This document shows, one piece after another, positions 29,801 through 54,433 of a stretch of 64,000 nt of DNA (its first letter is position 1; each line of letters opens with the position of its first letter). The notes beneath the pieces are model-generated. The model made no database searches and was not told where the DNA came from. It worked only from the letters and a program-made list of their open reading frames with translations. A program made the position numbers and the translations under genes. Location of the stretch: contig CAWCKJ010000004.1 in the NCBI GenBank assembly GCA_963796105.1, positions 160,001-224,000 on the forward strand. Direction: 5' to 3'. The DNA comes from a candidate division FCPU426 bacterium (GTDB lineage: Bacteria; Oederibacteriota; Muellerivitia; Muellerivitales; Muellerivitaceae).

Positions 29801-30055
29801 ACCTCTTCCGCCACCGTGGCGGGAGCCCTTCCCGCCGCCCTGGCCTGGGGACCCGGCGCCGAGCTGCGCCAACCCATGGCGATCGCCATCATTGGGGGCA
29901 TCATCTTCTCGACCCTCTTGACCCTGATCGTGGTGCCCTGCGCTTACAGCCTGATGAGCAGGTTGGAACGCCGGAAAGCCCACCATAGCACCGGATTCAA
30001 GGACCACCCAGACCAGGTTCCGAGCAACGAAAATACGGGTAACCCCGCGACTTAA
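26827..30055 (+). CDS. AcrB/AcrD/AcrF-family RND permease with one frameshift near 27762
   Basis: LSIRNPVFAWM, PDVNFPVV, IGVVVDDAIMVLENI, GLVKKNSIMLVDF, RLRPILMTS. Removing one base near 27762 joins MEEV to EKSLPKG. Confidence 0.93.
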
Positions 30056-36589: not shown

Positions 36590-38680
36590 TTAAATTTCAG
36601 CCTTTCTGAAAAGCAATAAAAGGTCGGTAATCCGAATATTCCTTATTTCCGAGACAGGCCGCAAGCGGTAAACACCGTTGCTTCCCCGCATATAACATAA
36701 ATCGCAATATCGCTGGATGAAATCATCCAGCCGTCCCCATTCCTCTGTGTTTAAAGAATAGACATAGGGGTAGTCCCGGGATAGACGGATGCCTTCCCGT
36801 CCTGAAACGGCCAGGGCATCCACGCCTAATTTTTTTAGCCCTCGAAAAATCTCATCGCCGTTCTTGGCCTTTTTCGCGAGGGAAGCCAACATTTGCTCGT
36901 CGAATGCGCTATTAGTGAGGAAAGGCTGTCGGTAATAAAGTCCACGGCTGTCCCCCGCAACCAGGATTCGGGCATCAGCCGGAAGTATTTGGGCGCAGGC
37001 CTCAGTTAAATCGTAATAGGTGTTGGTAAGATCGGATTGGGCAAGATACTCGGAATGGAGTTCCGCTCCGAACCAGACTTTCTGGCTTTGGTAATAAACC
37101 GTGCTTAACCGGCAAAGGGAAAGAAAACCAATCAAACCGAATAAAAGAGACATGGTGGCCCAAGCCCGAATAATGGATTTCACCTTGATATCGGACAAAA
37201 CGCAAACCATGGCTATGAGGCTTAATAGAATCGCCGGCATCGCCAGCCTCAATTGATGCGATACACCGAAACTCGCAATCAGATAAAGAACACTCAATAA
37301 CGCGATTTTCTTGGCGGATTTGGAAAAGGAGAAGCGGAAGAATAAAAAAGGCAGGAATGAAAAAAGCATCGGCGCGATGGATTGGGTCAAATCCCTGATA
37401 AAGATCAATTGGAACCATCTGACCGGTGATTCCCCTGATCCCCAAACCGCCGCGTGATCCCCCATCAAGCCTTTGAGATTTTCCAAGGGAAGGCTTTTTC
37501 CTTCGAACAAGGCGGATAAATAGGGATAAAAGGGATCCCCGGTAAAAAAATAATTTTTTATCGCCCACGGGGATAGAACCCCGGCTATCAGCAGAACAAA
37601 CCAGATCCAGCCCCTGGCGGAGTTTGTCTTACCATGGCCTTTAAAAGATGAACTTAAAACAACGAGTCCAATGAAAATTCCAATGACTGCAGTGTATTTG
37701 ATGGTCAAAGCGGTCCCGCCAAGAATGGCGGCTGCATAAACCCAATTCGTTTCTCCCTTGGTCCAGCGCGTTAGTCCGTAAAAAAACAGGACAAGATAAA
37801 GACACAATAAGATGTCGACTTGAGTCGTCCAAACGGTTGATGATACTAGTGGAAAAGCTGAGACCATTCCGAAAACAAGGAAACCATAAGTCGTCCCGGC
37901 CATTTCCGCCACCCAACCCGACGCGGCTAGGAGAAGGGTTCCGGCGGCCAAAGCGTTCAGCGTTTTGGCAGCCTCGGCTCCCTGGAAGAAAAGACCGTTG
38001 AGAAAATATAGTTCCCCGCCGAACGGGTAATAGGAATAAAGGTTGGTGGGAAAATCTATAATTCCATGGTGAAAAATCCAATAACTCAATGTGGATAGGT
38101 GATAAGCCAAACTGTCGTAATAAACTTCAGGGACAGCGCCTTGGGCCAAAGAAAATATTCCCAAAGTAATTCCGAGAAGAAACAGCAACCGCAAGGAGAG
38201 TTCTTCTGGCAACTCGAATCGAAAGGCAGGACGCTTCATAAGAATGAATAAAAACTCAATAAGCGCTATGCCCCAAGCGAAAATGGCAATAAGGGAAACC
38301 AAGGGTTGGTACCAAAGGCCAGATAAACCCAGTCCGAGCCAAATGCTGTTAGCTCCCCCCACTCCCAGTGCGAAATCCATGGAGATTTTTAAAGCCCTAT
38401 TCCCAGTGGATAAACCCAGCCACTTTCTAAAACGCCTTCCCCAAATCACAATCGTCAGCCAGATATTCAGGGACAAAAGAAAGGTCTTTAGAAAATACAG
38501 ACTGTTGGATTGAAAGCGAAAATAAGTGGCTGATTTCAAGTCCGCGAGGAGAGTCTTGAGGAAGGCGAAATCGGTTATGGATGACCAAGAGAAATAATAG
38601 AAAAAGACTATTCCCGCCCATACTACACTCAGGCCCAATAATCCCTTTTTCCTCGCAGTCAAGTTCTCAGCTTTTCCCAT
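36590..38680 (-). CDS. Polytopic membrane protein, probable GT-C (ArnT/PMT-like) glycosyltransferase
   Basis: PEVYYDSLAYHL, TIKYT, PWAIKNYFFTGDPFYP motifs; more than 10 TM helices. Confidence 0.7.
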   Translation of the reverse strand: MGKAENLTARKKGLLGLSVVWAGIVFFYYFSWSSITDFAFLKTLLADLKSATYFRFQSNSLYFLKTFLLSLNIWLTIVIWGRRFRKWLGLSTGNRALKISMDFALGVGGANSIWLGLGLSGLWYQPLVSLIAIFAWGIALIEFLFILMKRPAFRFELPEELSLRLLFLLGITLGIFSLAQGAVPEVYYDSLAYHLSTLSYWIFHHGIIDFPTNLYSYYPFGGELYFLNGLFFQGAEAAKTLNALAAGTLLLAASGWVAEMAGTTYGFLVFGMVSAFPLVSSTVWTTQVDILLCLYLVLFFYGLTRWTKGETNWVYAAAILGGTALTIKYTAVIGIFIGLVVLSSSFKGHGKTNSARGWIWFVLLIAGVLSPWAIKNYFFTGDPFYPYLSALFEGKSLPLENLKGLMGDHAAVWGSGESPVRWFQLIFIRDLTQSIAPMLFSFLPFLFFRFSFSKSAKKIALLSVLYLIASFGVSHQLRLAMPAILLSLIAMVCVLSDIKVKSIIRAWATMSLLFGLIGFLSLCRLSTVYYQSQKVWFGAELHSEYLAQSDLTNTYYDLTEACAQILPADARILVAGDSRGLYYRQPFLTNSAFDEQMLASLAKKAKNGDEIFRGLKKLGVDALAVSGREGIRLSRDYPYVYSLNTEEWGRLDDFIQRYCDLCYMRGSNGVYRLRPVSEIRNIRITDLLLLFRKAEI

Positions 38681-38833: not shown

Positions 38834-39502
38834 TTAAGGGCAAGCGGTGTAAACAAGTCTGAGATTATCGAGATAGACATTGCCTGTTCCCTTGGTTGTA
38901 TTGGCGTTGATGATGAGGTAAAGCTTTGTTAGGTAGGTACTGGAAACGACCCCATTCGCGGCCTTCAGAATTCCTCCAGCCCCAAGATTGATGCCCCAAG
39001 TCACAGACTGTTGTCCGCTGGTAATTGCGGGTTGACTGGAACAAATGGGTTGGTAAAAGGTGACGGGACTGTCGGCCAAAAGCATCAATTGGCTGTATGA
39101 GGCTCCAGCTAGAACTGTTGGGTCAATATAAATATCGGCGATCAGCTGGCTGTAATTATTCCAATTCTGTGGTGAGGAAAATGCTTCAATGTAAAACTGG
39201 TCGTTCCAATTATTAGGACCAGGTCCTGAACTAGCGGGAAGCGGATTGGTTATATCCAGGTCCAGGGACCACTGGCCTTGGGCAACATGTAATGGGGAAA
39301 GGGTTTTTGTATCGGTACTGCCGGTTATGTTCGAGAATTCCGAATTGCTCTCAAATCCATGAAATAGAAAAGGGGCACAGGGAGGTTTTGTTTTCATTTC
39401 TGTTAAAGATGGAACCTGAGTAGTGCATCCCTGGAATAGCACGATTAACGGGAGAAAACCCAAAACAATCAACCCCAATTTCCAGATTAATTTTATTCTC
39501 AT
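38834..39502 (-). CDS. Lipoprotein with CBM-like jelly-roll domain
   Basis: Lipobox LFQGC; GFES..., GQWSLDLDI, PQNWNNYSQLIADIY, VYLDNLRL pattern. Confidence 0.65.
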   Translation of the reverse strand: MRIKLIWKLGLIVLGFLPLIVLFQGCTTQVPSLTEMKTKPPCAPFLFHGFESNSEFSNITGSTDTKTLSPLHVAQGQWSLDLDITNPLPASSGPGPNNWNDQFYIEAFSSPQNWNNYSQLIADIYIDPTVLAGASYSQLMLLADSPVTFYQPICSSQPAITSGQQSVTWGINLGAGGILKAANGVVSSTYLTKLYLIINANTTKGTGNVYLDNLRLVYTACP

Positions 39503-39565
39503 CGTTTCATCCTCATCTTTGGATTCCGATAAAAAAACGGAACCCCTTTTCCAGTGCCGGTCGTT

Positions 39566-41944
39566 TTAAAACCGAACTTCGTAACTCAACTCAATGAATT
39601 GGTTCACCAACGTCCCCTGGACAGGGTTTGTTGGCATCATATTTCCAGAAGTCCAATCATAATCAATGAAGATATTGGAATTCCGGTTGACCTTGAAAAC
39701 ATTAGAAAATCTCCAGCTTTGAATTTTCCCGTCCAATTGGACAGGCGAGTAAAGGGTTAGGTCCGCATTATCATACAAATAGGAATACCGGACCCAAAGC
39801 GTGCCACCCAAACCTTCCTCGATCCCCTTGGCGGTCTGTTGGCTGAAAGCCGCCGAAATTTCCCATACTGGCAGTAGATCCACTCGGATTCCCCCGATGA
39901 TCCAAGTACTATCGAGAGAGCCCAAATCGCTGGTGGTCCGCTCGTATCGGACGTTGGTTCCCAATTCCAAATCCCGATCCCAACCCAAATAAGGGCCCAG
40001 GTTGAAGGAGGGGCCCACGTTGATGTATGTGAAATTACGAGTCAACACTTGGTTCGTGTTATACCAGCCGTCCACCGGAGCATAACCAGTTCCTGTGGTA
40101 TTGATCACCATATTGCCGGTCATTTCTTTGACCAAATAGGCAGACCCCTTAATTTTCAGTGAATCCTTATTTAAAGTTTTCAGATCAATATCCAACCCGA
40201 ACCCTTCCCGATTCGGAGTAGCCAATCCATAAGGGAAAGTATTGTCCTGGGTGCGATCGTAATACCCGAAAATGGCTCCAGGCCGTGGTACATTCGATAG
40301 GAAATACTGGCTCCTTAGAACCGGATCATAAAGATCAGGAGAAGTAATAAAACTTGAGCCAGAGTTGGCCGCATCTTGGCGAGTTTGAGCCAGGGGCGAA
40401 TAATAATAAGGCCCAACATTCAAATAATTTAACGAAACCTTAGAATTAGCGAATTGCAGATAAGGCCCTGCCATGACCGCAAAATCCCCGATCATGCGGT
40501 TCGGATCTCTCTTGTCGTCCTGGTAACGGGAATAAGCGTATTCAGCCATTCCGCCAACGTAGCACTCATCCCCCAGCCCTACCTTTACATCAGGCCTTAC
40601 ACTTCCGGTCAGATATTGATGGGCCCAAGTCAATGGATTCATCGGATCGTACGGGGAACCAGGTTGCTCGGTATCCAACGGTTCGTCCAGGATGAGACCG
40701 AAGGTATCCAGACTCAGTTGGAGGGTATTGGAACCCAACATCCATTGAGGGGTCTTCAAACCTGCTGATCCGCCGAAAATCCAATCCGTGTATTGGTTGG
40801 GGCCGTAATACCAGCCCCCGTTGTCACTAAACCCATTTCGAATCATATGTATGAAAGTTGAAACCTTCAGTAATTCCAACAGATCCGAATCAGGCCACAT
40901 CAAGGATTCCCCTAGTCTCAAACCACGGAAAGGCCAATAAGGCTCGTTGTTGAAAAAACTCTCGTACTTCTCGCGGGAGTCCCACCTGGCCCACATTTCG
41001 GGCATGTATTTTAAATCCAACGTGTTGCGGTTCCACAAGGTGAAAGGAGTGTAAGCCTCGTCAAAATCACCTAAGGTAGCTGAGAGCCAGGAAGGATTAA
41101 AATCTAGGGATATACGACGGACACTGAATGAAAAATCAGAATTAGACGGTAAAAAATTTGAACCAATTCTAAAAATAACATTCCAGCGCACTTCTTTGGA
41201 GATTGTACCCTCGGGTTGTAAATCTAAAAAACCATAAGTATTCCTCGCGCCCATCAATCCAACATCATCGCCGGAAGATTGTTGTGTAAATCCAAGCCCC
41301 AGTCCATAACCATGCACCGCGATGGTTGGATATTGGGAAATTCCCTTAAGCTTCTTCCTCAAATCATACTGCTCGGATTCAAAGTCGGCAGTTTTAGTCT
41401 TGAGAGCCTTCAACTTGTCTTTCAATTCCTGAAGCTCATAACTGTATGCTTCTTCTAGGCTATGAAGGGCTTTGGCGGCTTTCAGGCGGGCTTGCTCCCG
41501 TTCGGCCGGCGTTGAAGCAACTGGTCCTGTGTTGGACGCCGGAGCCGCCTCAGTCTCTTGCGTCGGAAGCAGCATGTCTTCCTGATCGGAGGCACTTGGA
41601 GTCACCGCCGCCTGAGCCAATATGATTGCACTGGAGGTTTTCTCCGCCTTTTGGATTAACTGGACCACATCGAAGCGGGTCAAACTGGATGGAGTAACAT
41701 CCTTGTTGGAAAGCCAACCTGCTTGGGCCAATTGTTTCAATTCTGTATAGGTGGGATCCCCAACTGATACAACGCCAAAAAGATTACTTGAGGGAATTCC
41801 AAGCGCAAACAACGGCATGCATAAAAATAAAATGAACGAGCAAAAAAATGGCCCCATTTGGGCAAATCGGAAATATTTGTTTTTTCTTACCACGATTCGC
41901 GAAGTCTCCTGATTAGAGTATTTTTCATCAGAAGGATGTTTCAC
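39566..41944 (-). CDS. Outer-membrane protein C: SLH-like N-terminus, coiled coil, putative beta-barrel (true start probably downstream)
   Basis: DPTYTELKQLAQAGWL..LTRFDVVQLI; LHSLEEAYSYELQELKDKLKALK; alternating beta strands; ends YEVRF. Confidence 0.7.
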   Translation of the reverse strand: MKHPSDEKYSNQETSRIVVRKNKYFRFAQMGPFFCSFILFLCMPLFALGIPSSNLFGVVSVGDPTYTELKQLAQAGWLSNKDVTPSSLTRFDVVQLIQKAEKTSSAIILAQAAVTPSASDQEDMLLPTQETEAAPASNTGPVASTPAEREQARLKAAKALHSLEEAYSYELQELKDKLKALKTKTADFESEQYDLRKKLKGISQYPTIAVHGYGLGLGFTQQSSGDDVGLMGARNTYGFLDLQPEGTISKEVRWNVIFRIGSNFLPSNSDFSFSVRRISLDFNPSWLSATLGDFDEAYTPFTLWNRNTLDLKYMPEMWARWDSREKYESFFNNEPYWPFRGLRLGESLMWPDSDLLELLKVSTFIHMIRNGFSDNGGWYYGPNQYTDWIFGGSAGLKTPQWMLGSNTLQLSLDTFGLILDEPLDTEQPGSPYDPMNPLTWAHQYLTGSVRPDVKVGLGDECYVGGMAEYAYSRYQDDKRDPNRMIGDFAVMAGPYLQFANSKVSLNYLNVGPYYYSPLAQTRQDAANSGSSFITSPDLYDPVLRSQYFLSNVPRPGAIFGYYDRTQDNTFPYGLATPNREGFGLDIDLKTLNKDSLKIKGSAYLVKEMTGNMVINTTGTGYAPVDGWYNTNQVLTRNFTYINVGPSFNLGPYLGWDRDLELGTNVRYERTTSDLGSLDSTWIIGGIRVDLLPVWEISAAFSQQTAKGIEEGLGGTLWVRYSYLYDNADLTLYSPVQLDGKIQSWRFSNVFKVNRNSNIFIDYDWTSGNMMPTNPVQGTLVNQFIELSYEVRF

Positions 41945-44177
41945 AAGTCACCTTCCATATTTGCTCACGCCTGTCAAAGCTCGGTACATTGCTCCAGGAA
42001 TATGTATTGATGAAGCAGTCCCCATGAATCTCAAATGTGCGGCTCACGGGGCATTTGAACCCAAAAGCCCAGGAAGTTTTCGTGAAATCCAGGAGTTGGA
42101 GATTGTATAAAGCGTTGGCCGGTAGCGTATTGAAATAGGAATAATATTCAGCCAAAGTCGGGTAATCCGACGATTGGGCAAACGCCGAGTTGTTCAAGGT
42201 ATATTCGTAACCGCTGGACTCGGCCTGTTCGTAGGCCGCCGAGAGAATCAAGCCTTCAAATAGAGGGACCTGGGGGAAGGGGCCGATGTCCGCGCAGACG
42301 ATAAGGGTATCAACGGTAAAAGGGCCTAACCCGGTCCCACCGTCGGTGGCTTGGTGTTTGTAATCACCTGATAACGCGCAGGTCTTGGGCGCCCCCTCTA
42401 GGGCCTTTGCCAGGTTCGCAGTCAATGCCCCTTCGTACCCTTCAAAATTCCTGGTATTAGTCACGGGTTGGCCGGAGTCCGCCGGAAGTACCTCATTTCC
42501 ATTGCCCGTCAAGACATAATTTGGCTGGAGTTCCTTCATTTTCAATATGTAGGACGCCTGGGGTTTCAGCCATCCTCCTTTTCCAATGTCGGCAGTGAAT
42601 CCAAGGACCGCGCCTTCCCGGTTAGGGGTCGCGTCCCCGTAAGGCAGGATGTTCTCACTCATTCGGTCATAGGGTTCGAATATCTGTTGGTTGATCCCTT
42701 GGAAGGCAAACCCAGACAGGTAATCATTAAGCCCGTCATCCAAAAGGTTGAAACCACTGCCTGCCAAATCCGGCGAAAATCGGTTGGTTTGAGCCCCCGG
42801 AGAGTAGAAATAAGGACCATTACTGAGATATTTGGCCGATAACTGGATTCCCTCGACATTAATAGAACCTTGGGTCAACACCGCCCAATCCTTGAGGGTG
42901 TCCTGGGGGTTGATGGTATCGTTCTGGTATTGGCTGGAAGCGTACTCACCGGAAGCCGAAACGCTGACTGAGTTATCAAGAGGAACATTTGCGCGGGCCG
43001 AAAGGCTGCCCACCTGGTATTGCCGGTTAGGCGGGGTAATACCTGGATAATAGTCTGCGGAATTGGAATCCGCCCAAAGCAAAAGCCCGCTCCCCTTAAA
43101 TTCTAACTGGTTCTTGAAGAGATCGATAGAAGCCTCACTGCCAGCGTAATCGTTGGCGAAAATGTATTGGGATTCCGGCGTAACAATTCCGCCCATTGCC
43201 TGGAGATGGAAGGAACTGAAAACCTCGCTGTTGGAAACCACTTGGTCGGAAGCCCCCTCAAAACCCCTCATGTGCCAGTCAGGTCCATGGTCCATATAAA
43301 CTAATTCCTCAATATCTTTTCGAGCCCTATTAAAAGAAGTCGGCTCGATCATGGTGTAGACGGGAATTTCGTTGTTCCAAAAGGTTAAGGGAGTATAGCT
43401 TCTGTAGAAATCGCCCACCGTGAGGTTCGCCACATCGTTGGTGTTATTGAGGGAAATCCACCTCAAGGTGCAGTTAGGGTTGATAGGTTCCCCGTAAATC
43501 ATTCCGACGGTGCGGGTGAGACGCAAATCCGCGTTAAACAGAACAAATGGAACCGGAATGCTTTTCAATCGTATATCCCCGAACAGGATATCGTTGTAAT
43601 CCATGGGGCCATAAACCGCGTTGGTTCCAAAACCGCGGAAAGTGTTGAAATAAGCCCTCGCGTAACCAGTCAGGTTGGTCCCGGTTTGTTTGAGGTATTC
43701 CTGCTGGAGGATCGAGAATTTTTCATTGCGGTGCCGGATGTCGTAAAACCTGTCGTCCAAACGAACCACATCCAAATCCATGACTTCCAATTCGGGCTTG
43801 AACTCATCCACCAGTTTTTGAAGGTTTCGATCCGGGAGGCCGGGGGAAGTTTTTAAATTAGAACCGCCCGAAGTTACCAACTCTTGGTCTTGAGATGTCC
43901 AGGACCGAACAGCCAAACTGGTCATCTGGGCCACTTCCAAATTGGTCATTTGGTTAACTGGTTTCACCGGTTGCGGGACCAAACCAGCATCTACTATTTC
44001 CTGAATGGCAGAATTAACCCATCCATCCCTGTCTGAGGTCGTCAGCGCCCCATGAACGGCAAGGGCTGGTAGCACAGGGCAAGACAGAAAAACAATAGTG
44101 TAAAGAAGAACTTGCTTCACACCGATCAAGTTTTTAATTTTTTCTTTTAACACTTTTATCTTTGCCCCTTGTGTCAA
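41928..44177 (-). CDS. Outer-membrane protein B: SLH-like N-terminus, coiled coil, putative beta-barrel (start may be GTG 44120)
   Basis: DGWVNSAIQEIVDAGLV..MTNLEVAQM; LQKLVDEFKPELEVMDLDVVRLD; ends CETSF. Confidence 0.7.
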   Translation of the reverse strand: MTQGAKIKVLKEKIKNLIGVKQVLLYTIVFLSCPVLPALAVHGALTTSDRDGWVNSAIQEIVDAGLVPQPVKPVNQMTNLEVAQMTSLAVRSWTSQDQELVTSGGSNLKTSPGLPDRNLQKLVDEFKPELEVMDLDVVRLDDRFYDIRHRNEKFSILQQEYLKQTGTNLTGYARAYFNTFRGFGTNAVYGPMDYNDILFGDIRLKSIPVPFVLFNADLRLTRTVGMIYGEPINPNCTLRWISLNNTNDVANLTVGDFYRSYTPLTFWNNEIPVYTMIEPTSFNRARKDIEELVYMDHGPDWHMRGFEGASDQVVSNSEVFSSFHLQAMGGIVTPESQYIFANDYAGSEASIDLFKNQLEFKGSGLLLWADSNSADYYPGITPPNRQYQVGSLSARANVPLDNSVSVSASGEYASSQYQNDTINPQDTLKDWAVLTQGSINVEGIQLSAKYLSNGPYFYSPGAQTNRFSPDLAGSGFNLLDDGLNDYLSGFAFQGINQQIFEPYDRMSENILPYGDATPNREGAVLGFTADIGKGGWLKPQASYILKMKELQPNYVLTGNGNEVLPADSGQPVTNTRNFEGYEGALTANLAKALEGAPKTCALSGDYKHQATDGGTGLGPFTVDTLIVCADIGPFPQVPLFEGLILSAAYEQAESSGYEYTLNNSAFAQSSDYPTLAEYYSYFNTLPANALYNLQLLDFTKTSWAFGFKCPVSRTFEIHGDCFINTYSWSNVPSFDRREQIWKVTCETSF

Positions 44178-44180
44178 TTC

Positions 44181-46985
44181 CTAAAACGAGAAAATAAACA
44201 TCGAATAGACCTGGTCGGCCTGGTAGCTGTTGGCCGAAACGTAAAGATCGCGGAATGTCACATGCTTATACCGCATTTCTAATTTTCCGCCGCCCCAAGG
44301 AAAATCATAGGCCATACCGGCCCCGAGAGAATCCGTCCGGTAGTCCACTTTGGGAATGGTGTAATTAGATTTCCACTGCTCCAATCCATAGTCTGCCAGG
44401 AGGTTGACCCATTTAAAAATGCCGTACATGAAAGCCGCGTCGTAAACGGTCTGGTCGAATAGACACGGGATATGGGCCAAGGTCTGTCCCGGACGGTTGG
44501 GGTCGGCTACGTTCGCAAGGGTTGGATTGTTCGTGTCACCCGATACCTCATTGTCAGTGAAAAATAAACCCGCGTAGAAAGGGGTATTCAAGCCGAGCAT
44601 TTTATTGAGCTGCAATTTCGCGGTAACCGTGGCGTAGTTAAAGGTTTTTATATGGTCTAGGGAAGTAAAAGTCACGCCGTTATCAGGAGAAGTAACCGAC
44701 TGTGAGCCTGGAATGTAATTTAGGATCAAAGGCACACGCTCCGCGATGGGAGGACCAAAACGGATAACATCGGGATTGAAAGTATTGCCGTCGCCCCGAG
44801 AAGACTCGATATTACTTACATAGGCTGCTCCCGCAGGATGCATCCCTTGGTATCCATCCCAAACGTTACTGCCGAAAATACCAGTGCTTTCAGGATAAAA
44901 AACCGATATCAGGTTGTAGGCCTCAACGGATTTATATCCCATTTCATCGGACACGGCTTGGTACTCGGTTTTCCGGGCCACATCCATATTGATGATCAAA
45001 TCGTCCAGGAAGCTTGGCAGGGATTTGGTCCAGCTTTCCTGGCGGCCCTTCCAACCCAATGTGGCCCGCCATCCATAGCGGTCACTGATCAAGTCATCCG
45101 CCATGCCCACAAATCCAAACTGGTCGTTCATGACGGGATTATTGTTATTGGTATTGGCCGGGAAACCGAATTTCCAAAATTGGATCCCCGTCAGGAGAAC
45201 TTTACTCTGGAAGTTTGAGTACTGCTCGCTAATGGCCGTGTAATAAAGCGTGAGGGGATAAAGGCTGAGGGCTGCTTGGCCCGCCGGCGCGCTTAAAGTT
45301 TGCGCCAGTGCGATATTCCCGGAATGAAAGCTGACCGGCCCTCCATCGTTATAAACACCGGTATAAAGATGGGTATAACCGCCCTCGATATCCAAAAACG
45401 CTGGTTTCAGGTCAAATCCCAAATCCGCCGCGTAAGATTTCATATCCATGTTCCCTTGCGTCAAGGGGGCGGAAAGCCCGTTATCGTTCACCCACAACGC
45501 CGAAAGGGAAGAAAGTAAAAACCCATTGGCCCAAGGTTGGGCGTACTTAATCCCCTCCTCCCATTGGTGGGTATCACCATCCACTCTCCCGAAGAGCATG
45601 TTCATTTTCGCGTCTTTGCTCACCAAGGGAAGGCTCGTCCCGACCATGTAAAGACCGTCGAAAACCTTCGTGGTTTGGTTTTGGGTGATCCAGGAAGTGG
45701 AACTGGGCACGTATCCCAAATTGGTCATATAGTCATCCCAGGTTTTCTGGTTCTTATCCCCGGAATATCTTTTCACGTCAAAAGGATCCTCGAAACGCAG
45801 GGCATTCGCCGCGCCGCCCCTCGTGAAGTCCCCGTAGTCAGTGTCCCAAGTGTAGGATTCCACGGCAATGGTACTGCTCCAATGGCCCAACATCCCATCC
45901 AGGTTATAGTTCAAGGAAGGGGCGCTGATATACAGGGAGGCCGGGGCTGAGGTAGCGTTTGAGGACTGAAGGGTGCTTTGTAAATTAACGGTATAAGAAC
46001 CCTTCCCTCCTAAATCACTCCAAACGCCTAAAGTGAAATCATTCGCCACCGCGGTGGCGCTGACGATAGTAATTCCTGACAGATGAAAGTTCTCCGCCTT
46101 GACGTCGGCCTCATAAATGAAATGGGGGGAAGTCGAGGATTTGTTGGACTTGCGAAAAATGGAGTTGATGTCGTCCTGTGTTGATTGGAGGGTTTCCAAT
46201 TCTTTTTCCTGGTCCTGAAGGCGGTAATCCAGCAGGGCCATCCGCGTCCGAAGATAATCCGACTCCTCGTCGAGGATCTTGAGAAGCGCGTTAATTTCAG
46301 TCTCAATATCGGTGTTGGCGGGCTGAGCCGGTATCGAGGCGGAGCCCACTTGCGCGTCAACCCATTGCTGTTCCGCCTGCGTCAGCCTGGCCTTCACTCG
46401 CGTGAGGTAATCCCGAATGGAGGGATTGGGTTGTTTCTGGATGAACTGGGTCAAAGCTACCGCGCCTTCCTTTGTTTTTCCCGCCATGACCTGGCAATAA
46501 CCCAGGTAATAGTAGGCCATCGCGATATTGGGGTTTTGCTGGATGACAGCCTGGAATTTGGGAATGGCTTGCGCGTACTGCTTTTGCTGATAAAGGGAGA
46601 ACCCTTGCACAAAATCTTGGTTCTGAGCCGGTGTTGCCACCGTTACTGCCGCCGCTGGAGCCGGATTTGCGGTTAAGTCGGTAGTAGACGCGGCTTGGGG
46701 CGCCAATGCGACTTGCAACTCTTTGGAAGTTTGGTAATTAGCCTTGGCCTTTTCAGTGAAGAAACCAAGCTCCAGTTTCGTCACTACCCGGCCCTGGTCG
46801 AGAACAGCTTGGTCTTGGGGGTCCAAAAGGCCGTAGGCTTCCAACGCTTTTACCCGCTGGTAAAGGGGCTGGTCGGAGGTCACATTATCCGAAGGATTGG
46901 CCCAAAGGCTTGTCGCTAGTGTCGTTGTACATAGAAGGGATAAGAAAAAAATACCCTTAAATGATTTTTTTAATCGTCGATTCAA
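44181..46985 (-). CDS. Outer-membrane protein A: SLH-like N-terminus, TPR insert, coiled coil, putative beta-barrel
   Basis: Signal peptide; DQPLYQRVKALEAYGLL..VTKLELG; TPR FVQGFSLYQQKQYAQAIPKFQAVIQQNP..AYYYLG; coiled coil; ends FIFSF. Confidence 0.7.
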   Translation of the reverse strand: MNRRLKKSFKGIFFLSLLCTTTLATSLWANPSDNVTSDQPLYQRVKALEAYGLLDPQDQAVLDQGRVVTKLELGFFTEKAKANYQTSKELQVALAPQAASTTDLTANPAPAAAVTVATPAQNQDFVQGFSLYQQKQYAQAIPKFQAVIQQNPNIAMAYYYLGYCQVMAGKTKEGAVALTQFIQKQPNPSIRDYLTRVKARLTQAEQQWVDAQVGSASIPAQPANTDIETEINALLKILDEESDYLRTRMALLDYRLQDQEKELETLQSTQDDINSIFRKSNKSSTSPHFIYEADVKAENFHLSGITIVSATAVANDFTLGVWSDLGGKGSYTVNLQSTLQSSNATSAPASLYISAPSLNYNLDGMLGHWSSTIAVESYTWDTDYGDFTRGGAANALRFEDPFDVKRYSGDKNQKTWDDYMTNLGYVPSSTSWITQNQTTKVFDGLYMVGTSLPLVSKDAKMNMLFGRVDGDTHQWEEGIKYAQPWANGFLLSSLSALWVNDNGLSAPLTQGNMDMKSYAADLGFDLKPAFLDIEGGYTHLYTGVYNDGGPVSFHSGNIALAQTLSAPAGQAALSLYPLTLYYTAISEQYSNFQSKVLLTGIQFWKFGFPANTNNNNPVMNDQFGFVGMADDLISDRYGWRATLGWKGRQESWTKSLPSFLDDLIINMDVARKTEYQAVSDEMGYKSVEAYNLISVFYPESTGIFGSNVWDGYQGMHPAGAAYVSNIESSRGDGNTFNPDVIRFGPPIAERVPLILNYIPGSQSVTSPDNGVTFTSLDHIKTFNYATVTAKLQLNKMLGLNTPFYAGLFFTDNEVSGDTNNPTLANVADPNRPGQTLAHIPCLFDQTVYDAAFMYGIFKWVNLLADYGLEQWKSNYTIPKVDYRTDSLGAGMAYDFPWGGGKLEMRYKHVTFRDLYVSANSYQADQVYSMFIFSF

Positions 46986-47037
46986 AATAGCCTCGGGTCA
47001 AAAAGTTAAACCGGTTTCAAGCCCTCATTAACATTTA

Positions 47038-47808
47038 TCAAAAAAACTCGACTTCATCCACCCAGTAATCGATGTTGTAACTTCCCGCGGTGTTGCCCGC
47101 GTTATGGGTCCATTCAATACCCAAAATTTCCTTCAGGTGCTCTGTGAATTCGGGGGGCGTGATGGTGTTGCCCCATCCGGGCTGCCGGGTGAGGTTCGCG
47201 AAAGGCAATGTCACCAAGGTCCATTCCCCTTTGGAGGCAAGGTCATAACCGAAATTATTGTAACAACCGTCCAAGCAAGTTCCTCCAGCTGAAGAGGGCA
47301 TGATGGGCGCGATGGAAATGGCGAACCGTCTGGAGGGAGCCTGATCCCCCGCGGGATACTTATAATAGAACTGGATTCCTTTAAAGGGACTGGCATCGTA
47401 ATAACCGGTTGGTTTTAATTTGCCGTCCAAAAGGAAAGCGGGATAGGTATTATCCCCCTTATTCACCAGCTTGCCGAAAACATGGGCGGCCATCTTGGTG
47501 CCATTGGCTCCGCCCGCCGTCACGAAAACCTCGTTGATGGTGTTTCCGCCGTAAGTATTTGTGCTCCAGGCCCCGTTCGTGGAGCCGTAGAGTTTGGGGT
47601 TCATATGAACCGAACCATCCTCAAAATTCCCGATGATTTTTTGTTCGGGAGCCACGACCACTTTGGGCTGGGAGTTCTCGGGGTTGACCAATCCATCCGT
47701 CAGGGGCTCGTTCTTCGAACCTTCGTTCACCAGGACCGCCCCGCATCCTGCCAGTAAACCAAACACGAGGAAGCAAGGAAAGAGGATGGAATATTTCAAC
47801 TTGGTCAT
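47038..47808 (-). CDS. Lipoprotein with CBM11/CIA30-like carbohydrate-binding domain
   Basis: Lipobox LLAGC; IGNFEDG, YDASPFKGIQFYYK, EWTLVTLPFANL..PGWG, YWVDEVEFF. Confidence 0.75.
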   Translation of the reverse strand: MTKLKYSILFPCFLVFGLLAGCGAVLVNEGSKNEPLTDGLVNPENSQPKVVVAPEQKIIGNFEDGSVHMNPKLYGSTNGAWSTNTYGGNTINEVFVTAGGANGTKMAAHVFGKLVNKGDNTYPAFLLDGKLKPTGYYDASPFKGIQFYYKYPAGDQAPSRRFAISIAPIMPSSAGGTCLDGCYNNFGYDLASKGEWTLVTLPFANLTRQPGWGNTITPPEFTEHLKEILGIEWTHNAGNTAGSYNIDYWVDEVEFF

Positions 47809-48169: not shown

Positions 48170-50158
48170 ATGAAAAGGATGATCAAGTTGTTCCTCCTCC
48201 TTCTTCTCTTCATGGGCCCTTCCTATTTGAGTGCTCAGACTCCGGTTGTTTCAATCAACGTTGACTCCTCCGTGACCCTCAACAGTTTCCGCCCCATCAG
48301 TATTTTCGGGAACAACACCAACGGCTGGGCCAGCCCTGTGCCGGTCAAGGACAAGATCCAAGCGGCCGGCAACTTTCTCCTTCGTTATCCCGGCGGCTCT
48401 TGGGGGGATATTTTCCATTGGAACGGAACAGGTTCCTTCAACAAGGAAGGCTGCTGGGTACCGGACAACAAGGAATACTCCCCAAGCTTTATCGAGCCAG
48501 AGGATGGCTCCACCTATTGCTCACGCAAAGCCATTGATGGGGACAAATCCACCGCTTGGCGTTCCAACCCGGATACCGACTTTCCCCAAGCCCAATGCTT
48601 GATCCTGGACCTCGGGGAGAAAAAATCCGTGGACGCGGTGACTCTGTCCTGGGGCGACGTAGCCAACAAGGACTGGCCTTACGCTAAAAAGTTCACCATC
48701 CAATATTGGGATCCCAAGGAAGGCCGGCAATGGATGCCTTATGGCGCCGAGAAGAACGCCTGGCTAGATACCACCGCATTGGACACGATTGGAAACAAAG
48801 GCGCCCAGGACGTGACCTTTGAACCGGTTACAACCCAATATTTAAGGATTTTAATGACTGAAAGCTCCGCGGGAAAAACAGGCGCTTATTCCGTGGCTGA
48901 GGTTAAGGCATTTTCCTCCGGATCGGATCTTTCTATTGCTAAAGACGGGGCCATCGCCTCCAGCACTCACCCCGCCTCTGAACGCAGTCCCCGAAAAATC
49001 TTTGGGTTCGAGGAATACATGGATTTCATGAATTCCCTCACCCCTAAAGGAATACCCCTGATCATCGTGAATTTCGGTACAGGCACTCCCCAAGAAGCCG
49101 CGTCCTGGGTCCACTACGCCAACCGCGTGAAACATTACGGCATCAAGTATTGGGAAATCGGAAATGAGATGGGTGGGCATTGGGAGGCCGGAGGGCCAGT
49201 CAACATCCAGGATTACGCCAGGCGGTATATCGAGTTTTATGAGGCCATGAAGGCTGAGGACCCCACCATCACCCTGGTGGCCCAGACCGGCGCCACAGAC
49301 TCCTCGGAACTTTATGACGGTAATTTATGTCTTCAGGATTTCGTGGATCGCCTGGCGAAAGATAAAAAAGAAAAATATCTCGAATGCTTCTCGATCCACC
49401 AATATCCCAATTGGGGACAGTCGGTACGGGATTTGCTGAATTCCCCGAAATCGGGAATGGATGACCTGGAAAAATCCATCCAAAAGCAACTCGCGGCCTA
49501 TCCTTCCCTGGCGAATGTCCCTGTTTGGATCAGTGAGTTCAACACCTCGGATCATGTCACGCCCGGGGACATTTCGGTTCACTTGGAAAATGGTCTGTGG
49601 CTAGCCCAGTATCTGGTGGAATTCATCCGTCACTTTGGAAGCCGGGGCTATGCCACCCTTTGGGACACCTTGAACGGTGGGAGCGCGATAAAGGATCCTA
49701 AAGGCGGTGACCATGGATACTTGCAGGCGGAGGAGGGCCCATACCAATACCAGGAGCGCGCCGATTACTGGACCATGAAGATGATGACCAATGATTGGTC
49801 CAAGCCGGGTGATGACCAGATCCATCAAATGGTGGACGCCCAAAGTTCCGAACCCTTTTTGGCGACTTACGCTGATTACAGGCCGGACGGCACCCTAAGC
49901 CTTTTAGTGATAAACAAGAGCCAGGACACGGCCTTTAAATCCTCGATCAACCTGAAAAATTTCAAACCCAACCCCAAAGCCAAGGGCTGGAGTTTTAATA
50001 AAACCAACTATATTTGGGAAACTGAAGTCTTGCCTTACCATGCCGACCCCGATGAACCGCCAAAATCGTTTAATCTGCATGGCGGAACCAATGGTTTTAA
50101 TTGCGATTTCCCTGCTTATTCCATTACAGTACTTCAATTCAACCCTGAGAAACCATGA
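48170..50158 (+). CDS. Secreted clan GH-A glycoside hydrolase (GH51-like) with inserted F5/8 type C (CBM32-like) domain
   Basis: Signal peptide; LLRYPGGSWGDIFHW, IVNFGTGTPQEAASWV, YWEIGNE, VWISEFN; insert AIDGDKSTAWRS..LILDLGE..TQYLRI..SVAEV. Confidence 0.75.
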   Translation: MKRMIKLFLLLLLFMGPSYLSAQTPVVSINVDSSVTLNSFRPISIFGNNTNGWASPVPVKDKIQAAGNFLLRYPGGSWGDIFHWNGTGSFNKEGCWVPDNKEYSPSFIEPEDGSTYCSRKAIDGDKSTAWRSNPDTDFPQAQCLILDLGEKKSVDAVTLSWGDVANKDWPYAKKFTIQYWDPKEGRQWMPYGAEKNAWLDTTALDTIGNKGAQDVTFEPVTTQYLRILMTESSAGKTGAYSVAEVKAFSSGSDLSIAKDGAIASSTHPASERSPRKIFGFEEYMDFMNSLTPKGIPLIIVNFGTGTPQEAASWVHYANRVKHYGIKYWEIGNEMGGHWEAGGPVNIQDYARRYIEFYEAMKAEDPTITLVAQTGATDSSELYDGNLCLQDFVDRLAKDKKEKYLECFSIHQYPNWGQSVRDLLNSPKSGMDDLEKSIQKQLAAYPSLANVPVWISEFNTSDHVTPGDISVHLENGLWLAQYLVEFIRHFGSRGYATLWDTLNGGSAIKDPKGGDHGYLQAEEGPYQYQERADYWTMKMMTNDWSKPGDDQIHQMVDAQSSEPFLATYADYRPDGTLSLLVINKSQDTAFKSSINLKNFKPNPKAKGWSFNKTNYIWETEVLPYHADPDEPPKSFNLHGGTNGFNCDFPAYSITVLQFNPEKP

Positions 50159-50242
50159 ATTATGAGATGGGATAGACTTAATTAAATATGAGTAGGTGTA
50201 TAATTTATATTCTAAATGGATGAATCCGAAGGAGGAGTAAAG

Positions 50243-51649
50243 ATGAAGCAATTGACTTTGATGGTACCGGTTTTATTCTTGTTTTTACTAGGGGTTTGGA
50301 TCTCCTCCGAAGGATGCCACCAAGTGGTTTCTCCGACTTTGCCCGCGACAAAAACTTTTACTCCTACAGTTACAACTTCGCCCACCAGGACCCCCACAAT
50401 AACACAGACCAATACCCAGACACCGACCTCAACACCAACACCCACGAACAGTCCGACCCCTTGGCCGACTGGCGTGCCCACCAACACTTTCACCGACACA
50501 CCCACGCCTACGCAAACCCCGACTAATACGCTGACTCCGACGATTACCCTTACGCCTACCATCACCCTTACACCTACCATCACGAGTACCCCATCTTGCG
50601 CGGGGGTCAATTTCCAAGCCACCTATACTTTCGAATCCTCCACTGATTGTTGGTCGGTTGTGACAGCAAACGGCGGGCCGGCAAGCATCATTCTCGGTTA
50701 CGGACTTTCTACGGCGCAACACCATGGCGGAAACAGTTCTTTCGCCGTGACCATCAACAATACCACCGCATCGACCCAAAGCATTAACTTGGTTCTCAAT
50801 TACGCATCGGCCCAGAATTTCGGTGGAGCAACCATTGTTTTTAATTGCTACTTGGATACTACATTAGCAGGTTGCGGGGCCATCCAACCGGCTGATACCA
50901 ATCCCGGTTGTGGATGGGATAACGCTTGGAAAGGAGGCCCAGGCACTGGTTCCTGGTTCCCTGTCACTTTGTTGCCATCCGCGGCAGGGTGTAGCGGAGC
51001 TTCCCAGCCCGCTTCCGTCATGGGACTTTATTTGCAGTTGTACAACATTCCCGTTGGCGCTTCCGGCAATTTCTACGTGGATGACATTACCATTACAATT
51101 CCAGCCGGACCCACCCCAACTTTCACATCGACCGCCACTCCTTCAACAGCCAACTCTTTTTATTTTTTAACGAATAATCTTTCGGGTTGGTCTTCCATTC
51201 CGGGTTTTGGATCTCCCGCTACTGCAAACCCAGTGACTCTTTCAAATTTAATCTATGAAACACCGGGTTATGGGGGCACAGATGGTTGCATAGGCGTTAC
51301 TGTGCAATGGAACCAGGCGGGGCAAAGCGAAGAAATACTGTATACTTATGCGTCAAATACCAGCTGGACAAGCTTAAATCTGGTGGGCTTCCGGGCTTGG
51401 GTCAACAGCAACCCCGTTATCTCGAATAACGCGGGAGCCCTGCTTTTCGTTAATGGTAGCGGCGGCTGGACTCAAGGAACTTACACCGATTTAGGAACGG
51501 CTAATACTTGGGTTCAGTTGAACTTACCGCTTCCCAATGGTTACGATGCCACCGGGGTCCAAGTATTCGGAGTACAATTCCAATCCGGGGGTGGTTCAAC
51601 CTCCTGGAATACTAGTACCGAATTCTTGGATAACGTGGAACTTTACTAA
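50243..51649 (+). CDS. Probable lipoprotein with Pro/Thr linker and two CBM-like jelly-roll domains
   Basis: AAGGAGGAG RBS before ATG 50243; hydrophobic leader ending SEGC; TPT repeats; domains end FYVDDITI and FLDNVELY. Confidence 0.7.
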   Translation: MKQLTLMVPVLFLFLLGVWISSEGCHQVVSPTLPATKTFTPTVTTSPTRTPTITQTNTQTPTSTPTPTNSPTPWPTGVPTNTFTDTPTPTQTPTNTLTPTITLTPTITLTPTITSTPSCAGVNFQATYTFESSTDCWSVVTANGGPASIILGYGLSTAQHHGGNSSFAVTINNTTASTQSINLVLNYASAQNFGGATIVFNCYLDTTLAGCGAIQPADTNPGCGWDNAWKGGPGTGSWFPVTLLPSAAGCSGASQPASVMGLYLQLYNIPVGASGNFYVDDITITIPAGPTPTFTSTATPSTANSFYFLTNNLSGWSSIPGFGSPATANPVTLSNLIYETPGYGGTDGCIGVTVQWNQAGQSEEILYTYASNTSWTSLNLVGFRAWVNSNPVISNNAGALLFVNGSGGWTQGTYTDLGTANTWVQLNLPLPNGYDATGVQVFGVQFQSGGGSTSWNTSTEFLDNVELY

Positions 51650-51718: not shown

Positions 51719-54433
51719 CTAATTCTTATTAGAACTAAATTCCATTTTGGCCGACTTTAGCCCTTTCGCCTTTGCGGCAAGGGTAATCTTCCCCGGCTTT
51801 TCCCCAGCCCCCATATAAACCGCGCAGAGACCGTTGAAGGCCTTCCTCTTATTGGATTTGTCAGGCTCGTGGCTGGAAGGGTCTCCGTTGCCGACCCCCG
51901 CGATCCGGCCTTGCCCCCGCACCTGGAAATGAACCTCGTTGTCAGCCGTCGGGACCAATCGCCCCTTCGCGTCGAGGATTTCGACCGTCACCGGCGTTAC
52001 ATCTTCCCCATCCGCCATGAGTTCTTTGCAATAGGGGGTCAGCCTAATGGCTGCCGCGGGACCGGTGGTTTCCACCCTTGTTTCCTCGGCAAATATCCCT
52101 TTCCGGTATGCTTTCGCGGTTAATATCCCTGGCTCGTACCAGACCTTCCATTCCAAGTGCCCGTTTCGAGACATTTCCTTGATTCCCTTGGATTTGCCGT
52201 TGAGGAAAAGTTCCACTTGGTCGTGGTTCGTGTGGCACCAGACGTCAATTTGATTCCCTTCCATACCCTTCCAATTCCAATGGGGGAACAGGTGCAAGAC
52301 GGGTTTGTCCCCCCACCAGGCCCGGTAATAATGGAAGTTATCCTTGGGAAAACCGCATATATCAATTATCCCGAAATGGGAGTTGATGCAGGGCCAGCCA
52401 TAGGGGGTGGGTTCGCCCTTGTAGTCGAATCCCGTCCAAATATAAACACCGGCCATATGGGACCGGTCAGCCGCTACCCTCCAAGCGTTCTCGGCGGGCG
52501 ATGACCACTCGGTATGGTTCACATCGTAGGCGCTCACATAACCCTTTTTCCGGTCAGTTTGGTAAATCCCCCTGGTCGAGACGGTACTGGCCGTCTCGCT
52601 TCCGAACATGGGCATGCGCGGGAATTTTTTCCGGAAGGGATCATATTGTAGGATGTTGTAGTTGAAGCCTTGTACGTCTACCACGTGTGTCAACCCTTCC
52701 CCCCAGCCTCCGTTCATGGCGCAGGTGATGGGCCGGGTCTTGTCGAATTTCAGAAGGATTTTCCTCATGGCCAGGCCCATCTTCCTGCCCTCTTCCTTGC
52801 CTTGCTTCCCTTCCTCGTTGCAGAGGGACCAGGCGATGATGGAAGGGTGGTTCCGGTCCCGGAGCACCATGCTGGTGACCTGCGATAGGATTTCCGGCGA
52901 GTCCCCCAAGCGGCGGTTCTCATCCAAGACGAGCATGCCTAACCGGTCGCACTCCTCCAGAAGTTCCGGGGCAGGCGGATTATGGGAACAGCGGTAGGAA
53001 TTGGAGCCCATTTCCTTGAGCTTTTCCAGCCGGTAGGTGAAAAGCCGGTCAGGCAAGGCGACTCCCACCCCGGCGTGGTCCTGGTGATTGCAGGTTCCCT
53101 TGAGCAGGACGTGTTTTCCATTCAGGAAAAAACCCTTGTCCTTATCGAAGCGGATGGACCGCACTCCGAAGGAAGTCTCCACCCTGTCCACCAAACGGCC
53201 GTCCCTTTCCACCTTCGTCACCAACTTATATAAATAAGGATTTTCCAAAGACCAAAGAAATGGGTTGGCGATGTCTCCCTTTTGAACGATTTCCTTTCGC
53301 CCGCCTTGAGGAATTTTTACCTGGCTGTAAAGCTTGAGGACTTTATTCCCCTTAGTGTCCATGATTTCCGAGGTCAATCGAAAGGAAGAAGCGGCTTGGG
53401 CCTTATTGGTGACTGCGGTTTGAATGGAAAGATCCGCCTTGGTTCCTTTTGGTTTCGAAACCACGTAAACTCCCCAGGGTTCCACGTACAGGGGATCGGC
53501 CTTGTTAAGCCAGACATGCCGGTAGATACCCCCTCCCTCATACCACCAGCCCTCATGGCCCCGCGCGTCCACTCTTACCGCCAGGACGTTCCTTCCGCCA
53601 TACATCACCTCGTCCGTGATATCGAACCGGAAGCTGGTATAGCCGCTCCGGTGGCGTCCCAGCAGTCGGCCATTCAGCCAGACCCGGCAGTTACGGAACA
53701 CCCCGTCGAAATCAATCCAAAGGCTTCTGCCCCGGTCCTCTTCCGGGACCTCGAAAGTCTTCCGGTACCAGCCGATGTCCTTGGGGAGATAGCCATGGGC
53801 GGGGTCGTCGGTTTTCCGGTCGAATTTCCCTTCCACCACGAAATCATGGGGCAGGTGGACATTCCTCCATCCTTGGTCTTTGAAATGATAGGAAGCCGGC
53901 CCTTGCCAGGTGGCCGGAGGCACGGGAAGCTCCAAATCGGCGCCTCCAATAAAGCCGTGGCCCCAGTAGCTTTTCACCAGGACAGCCAAATGGTTGGGCC
54001 CGCCCTCTTTCCAGGCTGAGTCCAATGGAACATCAAAAGGGTCGGTCCACAACTCGTGATGCAGAAGCTCCCGGCCGTTAAGATAGATGGTGCCGTCGTT
54101 GTTGATGGAGACGAAATGAAGCGTCCGGTTGGGGCCGGGAATTTCCGGCAGGAGGGTCCGGTACCAGGCAAAACCCTTTTTTTTATCGAAGGCATCCTTC
54201 CATGGCCGGATGGTCTTCCAGTTCCGGTCCGGAAAACCCGGGGCCGCCATTTTAAGATTTTTCGGTTCTTCCTCCCCGATTAACTGGTAGCGCCAATTCC
54301 TGATGGGAATGGAATAGGGATAACCCGGCAAATCCCCCAGGTGGAACCGCCAGTCGGAATCGAACCTCAACCGTTCCCTTGCCATTGATTTTGTGGCCGC
54401 TTTTTTCCGTGTCATAAAACCTCTAAAATTCAT
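51719..54433 (-). CDS. GH2 beta-galactosidase-like enzyme (DUF4982 type), cytoplasmic, with an extra nested jelly-roll domain
   Basis: WRNVHLPHDF, GWYRKTF, FDGVF, WWYEGGGIYRHVWL, GTCNHQDHAG, RCSHNPP, RDRNHPSIIAWSLCNE, FGSE, WTGFDYKGEP, GVGNGDP. Confidence 0.92.
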   Translation of the reverse strand: MNFRGFMTRKKAATKSMARERLRFDSDWRFHLGDLPGYPYSIPIRNWRYQLIGEEEPKNLKMAAPGFPDRNWKTIRPWKDAFDKKKGFAWYRTLLPEIPGPNRTLHFVSINNDGTIYLNGRELLHHELWTDPFDVPLDSAWKEGGPNHLAVLVKSYWGHGFIGGADLELPVPPATWQGPASYHFKDQGWRNVHLPHDFVVEGKFDRKTDDPAHGYLPKDIGWYRKTFEVPEEDRGRSLWIDFDGVFRNCRVWLNGRLLGRHRSGYTSFRFDITDEVMYGGRNVLAVRVDARGHEGWWYEGGGIYRHVWLNKADPLYVEPWGVYVVSKPKGTKADLSIQTAVTNKAQAASSFRLTSEIMDTKGNKVLKLYSQVKIPQGGRKEIVQKGDIANPFLWSLENPYLYKLVTKVERDGRLVDRVETSFGVRSIRFDKDKGFFLNGKHVLLKGTCNHQDHAGVGVALPDRLFTYRLEKLKEMGSNSYRCSHNPPAPELLEECDRLGMLVLDENRRLGDSPEILSQVTSMVLRDRNHPSIIAWSLCNEEGKQGKEEGRKMGLAMRKILLKFDKTRPITCAMNGGWGEGLTHVVDVQGFNYNILQYDPFRKKFPRMPMFGSETASTVSTRGIYQTDRKKGYVSAYDVNHTEWSSPAENAWRVAADRSHMAGVYIWTGFDYKGEPTPYGWPCINSHFGIIDICGFPKDNFHYYRAWWGDKPVLHLFPHWNWKGMEGNQIDVWCHTNHDQVELFLNGKSKGIKEMSRNGHLEWKVWYEPGILTAKAYRKGIFAEETRVETTGPAAAIRLTPYCKELMADGEDVTPVTVEILDAKGRLVPTADNEVHFQVRGQGRIAGVGNGDPSSHEPDKSNKRKAFNGLCAVYMGAGEKPGKITLAAKAKGLKSAKMEFSSNKN

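Follow-up and report, generated by a model that had tools for sequence, protein, structure and literature searches.

A five-gene cassette in the genome of a candidate division FCPU426 bacterium most likely encodes a stalked, three-barrel, multi-copy variant of the glycan-uptake system specified by chu_1276-1280 in Cytophaga. The cassette lies in the stretch of DNA analysed here, hereafter the window, which comprises 64,000 nucleotides (positions 160,001 to 224,000 of contig CAWCKJ010000004.1, assembly GCA_963796105.1) and to which coordinates refer unless a contig is named. Inspection of open reading frames (ORFs) gave the order lipoprotein L1 > A > B > C > lipoprotein L2 on the minus strand, in which A, B and C are predicted outer-membrane barrels preceded by S-layer homology (SLH) regions and coiled-coil stalks, and the lipoproteins resemble carbohydrate-binding modules (CBMs):

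47038..47808, minus strand, L1: conserved lipoprotein whose CBM11/CIA30-like domain is assigned through a transitive link; usually immediately 5' of A
44181..46985, minus strand, A: degenerate SLH behind a signal peptide, TPR insert, coiled-coil stalk and a barrel predicted to have 22 strands, its loops 3, 7 and 8 being long
41928..44177, minus strand, B: SLH with the conserved Trp and without the TRAE Arg; stalk; barrel, a homologue of the CHU_1277 family
39566..41944, minus strand, C: paralogue of B; SLH with Tyr and the TRAE Arg and without the Trp; stalk; barrel predicted to have 22 strands, its loops 3 and 7 being long
38834..39502, minus strand, L2: variable lipoprotein 3' of C; CBM-like beta-sandwich on weak evidence

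The initial annotation of this region, a reading of the sequence without database searches, had described five tightly packed, co-oriented genes, and this arrangement stands: five minus-strand ORFs are spaced by 52, 3, -17 and 63 bp (L1/A, A/B, B/C and C/L2, respectively). The L1 ORF runs from 47859 to 47038, with a conserved Met18 that puts the likely start at 47808, and its lipobox, LAGC, belongs to a G38-C39-G40 motif invariant in 32 L1 members; L2 (222 aa) has the lipobox FQGC. A is 934 aa and B 749 aa long, and C is 792 aa counted from its first GTG (750 aa in the database call). All three have signal peptides and, as had been claimed, end in Phe, a residue also terminal in 42/43 A, 42/47 B (the other five Tyr) and 47/48 C relatives. 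The codons for the conserved terminal Y-E-x-x-F of B and C include, in many cassettes, the ATG or GTG that opens the next gene (for example, MKSNF starts), giving a 17-nt overlap that may indicate translational coupling or merely be an artefact of taking the first start. A is found in two ORFs in one relative (L149:8532-11430) and a B-like gene is split in another (L145:1995-4115), through frameshifts or assembly errors. A promoter and terminator scan gave signal at or below chance.

Stalked barrels and their Cytophaga relatives

The link to Cytophaga comes through B. Run against 1.84 billion representatives, the B profile gave 409 matches, among them a family of barrels of about 570 aa without SLH or stalk (family A5), whose named members belong to the Cytophagaceae and other Bacteroidota. 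Family A5 can be aligned with either B or C across about 500 columns (hhalign probability 100; E 2e-39 for B and 5e-39 for C), and its profile retrieves all 8 B/C proteins of the source genome and nothing else. The first ~360 residues of CHU_1277 (PMC5553014 Table S2) follow the A5 consensus and a 577-aa member on contig L156 block by block, as judged by eye, and the agreement covers the entry motifs of loops 3 and 7. On this sequence evidence the B and C barrels are full-length homologues of the CHU_1277 family, the membership of CHU_1277 itself being matched by eye. In Cytophaga, chu_1276 and chu_1277, and likewise chu_1279, are each required for growth on cellulose and SusCD homologues are dispensable; mutants in chu_1276 or chu_1279 show poor growth when glucose is low, and CHU_1279 bears a CBM11-like cellulose-binding domain (PMC12016534). 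The same paper reports the chu_1276-1280 cluster in two further Cytophagales; descriptions of the locus cover three close Cytophagales only.

A is likely the counterpart of CHU_1276, by a link that is transitive and positional. Metagenome contig L156, from Bacteroidota, encodes a partial A-like barrel, then the 577-aa A5 barrel, then a 360-aa lipoprotein with a weak CBM_11 match (E 0.035), gene sizes that agree with the 85, 65, 41 and 42 kDa of CHU_1276, 1277, 1278 and 1279 (PMC6247017 supplement). The partial barrel scores 42.6 bits (E 1.4e-12, Z=1000) against a profile of 11 distant A-types, to which A of the window scores 83.6 bits. Beyond Bacteroidota, the B profile matches a homologue of 662 aa (E 2.5e-13) whose language-model features fall among clusters with Fibrobacterota as the commonest phylum, no more than a lead to membership of that phylum in the barrel family, and an Atlas structural neighbour of one Cytophagaceae member is a 911-aa SLH-bearing cluster (TM 0.73). 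A tblastn search of plasmids with a Cytophagaceae member gave no match. CHU_2679, an abundant hypothetical outer-membrane protein of C. hutchinsonii with a mass (65.5 kDa) like that of CHU_1277 (PMC6247017 supplement), may be a second family member. The PopA superfamily, whose paper names Fibrobacter and Cytophaga, comprises 16- and 8-strand proteins and was set aside as unrelated.

The architecture proposed at the outset, an SLH region followed by a stalk and a barrel, was borne out by profiles and models. Taken singly, A, B and C pass the threshold of none of the SLH or porin models in Pfam and NCBIfam, the SLH model PF00395 matches nowhere in the source genome, and neither database holds a barrel family for the window proteins, their genome paralogues or 32 homologues; the sole hint from family models, NF033921 por_somb (E 0.046), sits on the coiled coil. 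When family profiles were built from C (115 sequences), A (34) and B (36), the best match in the Protein Data Bank (PDB) was in each case Veillonella OmpM1, over the SLH or the SLH and stalk only (E 8e-4, 1.4e-5 and 1.1e-4, respectively), so that an OmpM-type N-terminal SLH is present, though degenerate and below Pfam detection. AlphaFold2 models of C (pLDDT 86.3) and A (pLDDT 76.8) both place SLH-like helices, a low-confidence linker and a long helix before 22 barrel strands, counted from DSSP listings, and in both the predicted C-terminal body is a barrel. The linker of A holds the TPR insert, which 2/4 A copies of the genome have. The profile matches to OmpM1 end at the stalk and show no homology to its 16-strand porin; the likeness to OmpM, SlpA and cyanobacterial porins suggested earlier thus stands for the stalk (OmpM) and not for the barrel, the closest system being the chu_1276-1280 locus. 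Classical OmpM membership was rejected on barrel size. The initial annotation had called the three proteins divergent paralogs: B and C clearly are paralogues (28% identical over 525 aa), but A aligns to them over the N-terminal SLH and stalk only (hhalign probability 96-97).

Both models lack a plug, and in each the loops that follow strands 5 and 13 (loops 3 and 7) are long. These two loops contain the most conserved residues, with many conserved aromatic and charged ones; OmpM1 is constricted by its own loops 3 and 7 (PMC10628300). Fold searches with the models returned generic outer-membrane barrels and no standout match. In the wide VIA search, made with C only, the best Z was 14.2, OmpM1 (Z 13.4, rmsd 6.6) was level with unrelated porins, and TonB-receptor barrels aligned along the entire barrel (about 350-400 residues, rmsd 4.3-5.3 A), a pattern compatible with the modelled C being a closed 22-strand barrel lacking a close solved relative. 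It could be argued that the proteins are TonB-energised transporters with an unusual N-terminus, that is, atypical SusC equivalents, since they have 22 strands, TonB-receptor barrels align to C over about 390 residues and structure prediction of CHU_1276 retrieved matches to TonB-dependent transporters (PMC12016534). We consider this very improbable because neither model has a plug domain, no TonB-receptor Pfam family matches and the VIA alignments (rmsd 4.3-5.3 A, Z about 12-13) are no better than those of porins; SusC membership was rejected on the missing plug.

An alternative interpretation is that the cassette builds a surface scaffold for glycan adhesion, which displays or stabilises CBM lipoproteins and hydrolases, its barrels being largely occluded and sugars entering through OprB or TonB receptors. 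[quoted passage not shown] However, conservation peaks in the very loops that constrict OmpM1, the Cytophaga mutants are defective on low glucose and periplasmic sugar-binding proteins often adjoin the cassette, and we therefore regard a scaffold as unlikely, if worth keeping in view.

The flanking lipoproteins had been described as CBM proteins, which holds in part. Both have lipoboxes, and L1 is well conserved (mean identity 54%), but its CBM11 assignment is transitive only: none of the 32 members matches Pfam CBM11 directly, and the L1 profile matches proteins that bear Pfam CBM_11/CIA30 (domain E 7e-8), a link that serves for L1 and for the lipoproteins termed L4. L2 has a CBM_17_28 match only, a weak one (E 0.025), and other cassettes have L4-type lipoproteins in its place. 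Neither L1 as a single sequence nor the alignments of L1 and of L2 retrieved a credible CBM when the PDB was searched by sequence.

Conservation of the trio and indirect evidence for a heterotrimer

The source genome (4.98 Mb, 96.8% complete) contains four cassettes:

C4:198.8-207.9 kb: cassette 1, the window copy
C4:349-360 kb: cassette 2
C7:44.8-53.9 kb: cassette 3
C3:8.3-16.8 kb: cassette 4

A profile search found exactly 4 A, 4 B and 4 C proteins and no orphan subunit; same-type identities among these copies are 41-68%. Transposase-like ORFs, recognised by sequence, lie just 5' of the C3 cassette at the contig start (L007:94-6777), which suggests that accessory copies are mobile. A single-protein scan of genome contigs gave nothing and a profile scan gave matches. 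The B profile matched 56/99 genomes of the phylum, including 30/30 other members of the family; C was matched in 24/24 genomes of the same family and 1/1 of the same order. The stretches then examined are those around the best matches rather than a random sample. Within the family and order, A>B>C is complete and in order in 43/51 stretches, the other 8 are cut by an end and none is rearranged. Stretches from other families instead hold an adjacent A-like>B-like pair without a third barrel (10/13), and CAZyme (carbohydrate-active enzyme) or CBM genes (8/13). In a quick, midpoint-rooted tree the B clade is sister to the C clade (SH-aLRT 99), and both are separate from single-copy B-like proteins and from Bacteroidota and Fibrobacterota-like groups. 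This topology, with the pair version in other families, suggests that the trio derives from an A+B pair: the ancestral form was likely that pair, and B and C probably arose by duplication within this order. A within-phylum two-gene A>B cassette whose barrels lack SLH and stalk, as in the Bacteroidota form, occurs on L139 (G056:C123), with protein P0256.

The SLH regions bear on how the three subunits might assemble. SLH grooves combine a Trp, a Gly and the Arg of the TRAE motif from three different SLH domains (PMC6081394); the OmpM1 counterparts are W34, G58 and R64, and Y36 is proposed to bind polyamine (PMC10628300). With positions assigned through profile alignments to OmpM1, the W34 equivalent is Trp in 32/36 B, and Trp is outside the six commonest residues in A and the five commonest in C. 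The TRAE Arg position is conversely Arg in 57 and Lys in 9 of 67 A and Arg in 111/115 C, as against Asn in 36/36 B, and at the position of Y36 Tyr stands in 65/67 A and 109/115 C, and Asn or Asp in B. Some single-copy B-like proteins keep both Trp and Arg (3/10 shown). A homotrimer of A, of B or of C would thus lack one or other residue and a mixed trimer would have both, which favours a heterotrimer. We consider an A:B:C heterotrimer joined through the coiled-coil stalks likely, given the fixed A>B>C order, the lack of orphans and the complementary SLH residues.

The proteins could instead be glycan channels that form separate A, B and C homotrimers, or loose mixtures, for different substrates. 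OmpM1 is homotrimeric and Veillonella has four OmpM paralogues (PMC10628300), and co-regulation alone could preserve operon order. Yet no subunit has both the SLH Trp and Arg, the genome has no orphan copies, chu_1276 and chu_1277 are each required, and whole cassettes appear to be copied together, with A, B, C and L1 correlated in their pairwise identities (rho 0.68-0.82, 35 cassettes). We caution that kin are not independent in this comparison and that shared ancestry alone would suffice to produce the correlation. On balance, separate homotrimers appear distinctly unlikely.

Genomic context and other routes of sugar entry

Neighbours were labelled by BLAST propagation from Pfam-annotated representatives. 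In 27/51 family and order stretches the cassette is a core copy, set between a trmA-fusion gene and lepA/lepB/hemN. The non-core stretches (n=24) comprise 16 with glycoside hydrolase (GH), carbohydrate esterase (CE) or CBM genes, 3 with a sugar-binding protein, 1 with galK and 4 (2.5-11.6 kb) with nothing of the kind. The expected synteny with CAZyme genes is therefore seen in these 16/24 non-core stretches but not for the core copy. The initial annotation had named trios lying mostly away from CAZyme genes as a refuting outcome, and the core copies amount to that in part. GH44 is the commonest CAZyme adjoining accessory cassettes, and in the window the copy is accompanied by GH44, GH2, a GDSL esterase and GH36, so that the locus joins lipobox-bearing, CBM-like surface lipoproteins to glycoside hydrolases. 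Upstream of the cassette the window contains:

48170..50158, plus strand: secreted glycoside-hydrolase-like protein with a CBM32 (F5/8) domain, divergent from the cassette and accessory to the locus (ArfA-like, E 1e-7, below cut-off)
50216..51649, plus strand: L3, a Thr-rich lipoprotein with galactose-binding-domain-like modules, which often adjoins accessory cassettes
51719..54433, minus strand: GH2, from the domain scan
54716..57304, plus strand: GH44, from the domain scan

The C7 copy has LacI, GH35, GH29, GH44, AraC and GH2 for neighbours, and its locus looks xyloglucan-like.

One could also read the cassette as primarily a constitutive outer-membrane tether and general porin, the equivalent of OmpM, with its CAZyme association a secondary reuse. 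The core copy lies in a housekeeping context, the B profile finds the cassette in all 30 other family genomes, no Pal passes its cut-off in the genome and OmpM1 is the best PDB match. But L1 is retained in core copies, which usually have a pair of CBM11-like L4 lipoproteins as well and often a LacI close by, the B profile matched only part of the phylum, stalk-less homologues are essential on cellulose in Cytophaga, five OmpA-like wall-binding domains are present below the Pal cut-off, and CsaB was not found in the genome. We give a primary tether role a low probability, a shade below that of separate homotrimers.

With regard to entry routes, SusD (PF07980) is absent from the genome (0 matches, with a positive Bacteroides thetaiotaomicron control), no SusC (TIGR04056) passes its cut-off there, and at the cassette genes neither PF00593 nor TIGR04056 gives a match. 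These results, and the homology of B and C to the cellulose-required CHU_1277, support the SusCD-independent glycan role that had been proposed. The genome encodes 9 TonB receptors, none near a cassette, and 2 OprB porins, far from all cassettes. The initial annotation had noted no ABC transporter at the locus within the window and had named one just outside it as a refuting outcome. This holds in part, for a family-1 sugar-binding protein (1 of 9 in the genome), an ABC-type solute-binding protein, is encoded about 1 kb past the window end; being periplasmic, it would complement rather than replace an outer-membrane channel.

Several further features of the surroundings were recorded. A gene at C4:360.0-364.2 kb (L002:15036-19178) encodes a TRAM+TrmA methyltransferase fused to about 900 aa, whose C-terminal part matches no Pfam family; orthologues of 1240-1540 aa lie directly 5' of core cassettes in 23 stretches. 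At 36590-38680 (minus strand), after the window cassette and before glmU/prs, a 696-aa polytopic membrane protein with a weak LIC_10190-family match, which we take to be GT-C-like, has a copy in the same genus only. At 26827-30055 (plus strand), after an OEP gene, an AcrB-family RND gene appears as overlapping 322- and 775-aa ORFs in different frames, through a frameshift or assembly error. The genome is rich in giant (1000-3000 aa) secreted Thr/Pro-repeat proteins (for example, C6:111263-120493, C9:35284-42795 and C4:955468-962340), and several of its CAZymes terminate in FlgD-like Ig domains, which may be a secretion or sorting signal particular to the lineage.

A proposed model for glycan uptake and comparison with known systems

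We propose that A, B and C likely join through their stalks as one A:B:C heterotrimer, which a composite SLH head would tether to the cell wall. The CBM-like lipoproteins would likely capture plant-glycan oligosaccharides, which would diffuse into the periplasm without SusC or SusD. Loops 3 and 7 may fold into the lumen as an aromatic, charged sugar filter, in the way that the same two loops constrict OmpM1. Neighbouring GH44, GH2, GH29 and GH35 enzymes would cut the polymer, and periplasmic family-1 binding proteins would receive the products. The lepA-linked core copy would be a constitutive channel that may double as a tether, and accessory copies would serve particular hemicelluloses. Channel function and heterotrimer taken together seem to us somewhat more probable than the contrary. 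A broader reading, to which we grant rather less than an even chance, is that the cassette is the stalked, wall-anchored form of a cross-phylum, obligately hetero-oligomeric 22-strand glycan channel. By this reading the channel would carry out outer-membrane import in bacteria that degrade cellulose by contact (Cytophagales, Fibrobacterota and the Goldbacteria/Firestonebacteria group); it would descend from a tether of OmpM type and, in this cassette, be a true A:B:C heterotrimer whose wall-binding site is single and composite.

Several points weigh against this model. The case for contact among A, B and C is indirect, and so is the identification of A with CHU_1276, the L156 partial barrel going undetected by the close window-family A profile alone (4.5 bits). 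The SLH regions lack a Pfam match, the consensus lines show no evident second Gly for GIIxG and a search for CsaB (PF04230) found none at 96.8% completeness, so that the head may be partly vestigial; the Bacteroidota homologues are stalk-less, and the stalk might only oligomerise. No CAZyme occurs in the about 5 kb of fetched flank of any core copy (27/27), the 2 OprB porins and 9 TonB receptors are other possible entries for sugars, and the tie between CHU_1277 loss and beta-glucosidase presentation (PMC5553014) fits a scaffold role.

A search of the open-access literature found no paper describing the cassette or its Cytophaga link. How cellulose products pass the outer membrane of Cytophaga-type bacteria without SusC/SusD is described as an open question (PMC12016534), and the present analysis extends the family of the chu_1276-1280 barrel to another phylum and, as a lead, to Fibrobacterota. 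It also yields a concrete structural hypothesis of plug-less 22-strand barrels with a loop 3/7 filter in a hetero-oligomer, for the testing of which C. hutchinsonii is genetically tractable, and a profile marker for polysaccharide loci overlooked by SusCD-based annotation. Goldbacteria/FCPU426 are placed as sister to Firestonebacteria and Elusimicrobia and described as CBM11- and GH44-rich cellulose degraders (PMC7031533). OmpM is reported as absent from Gracilicutes (bioRxiv 2021.05.31.446380); the present analysis finds SLH stalks of OmpM type in the source lineage, which is probably outside Terrabacteria.

Among known systems, the SusC/SusD utilisomes of Bacteroidota combine a 22-strand barrel with surface glycan-binding lipoproteins and are clustered with CAZymes and regulators. 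The cassette resembles them in its predicted 22-strand barrels, CBM-like lipoproteins and CAZyme and regulator neighbours, but has no plug, no SusD and no sequence similarity to them, and has a periplasmic stalk instead. With OmpM1 of Veillonella parvula (PDB 8BYS/8BYM/8BZ2) it shares SLH, coiled-coil stalk and barrel in the same order, sequence homology in the SLH and stalk, and long loops 3 and 7; it differs in the predicted number of strands (22 versus 16), in a barrel of about 590-650 aa with no sequence match to that of OmpM1, in degenerate SLH regions whose residues are split among subunits, and in having three fixed, distinct subunits with lipoproteins. The chu_1276-1280 locus likewise has two successive non-SusC barrels, followed by CBM-like lipoproteins of CBM11-like fold and a hydrolase, the cassette lipoproteins being likened to CHU_1278/1279 by their CBM-like type and not by sequence homology. 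Unlike the Cytophaga family, which has neither, the cassette barrels carry an N-terminal SLH and a coiled-coil stalk; there are two copies of the CHU_1277-type subunit, B and C, the gene before A encodes a further conserved lipoprotein, L1, and the four cassettes of this genome have neighbours that point to hemicellulose as well as cellulose.

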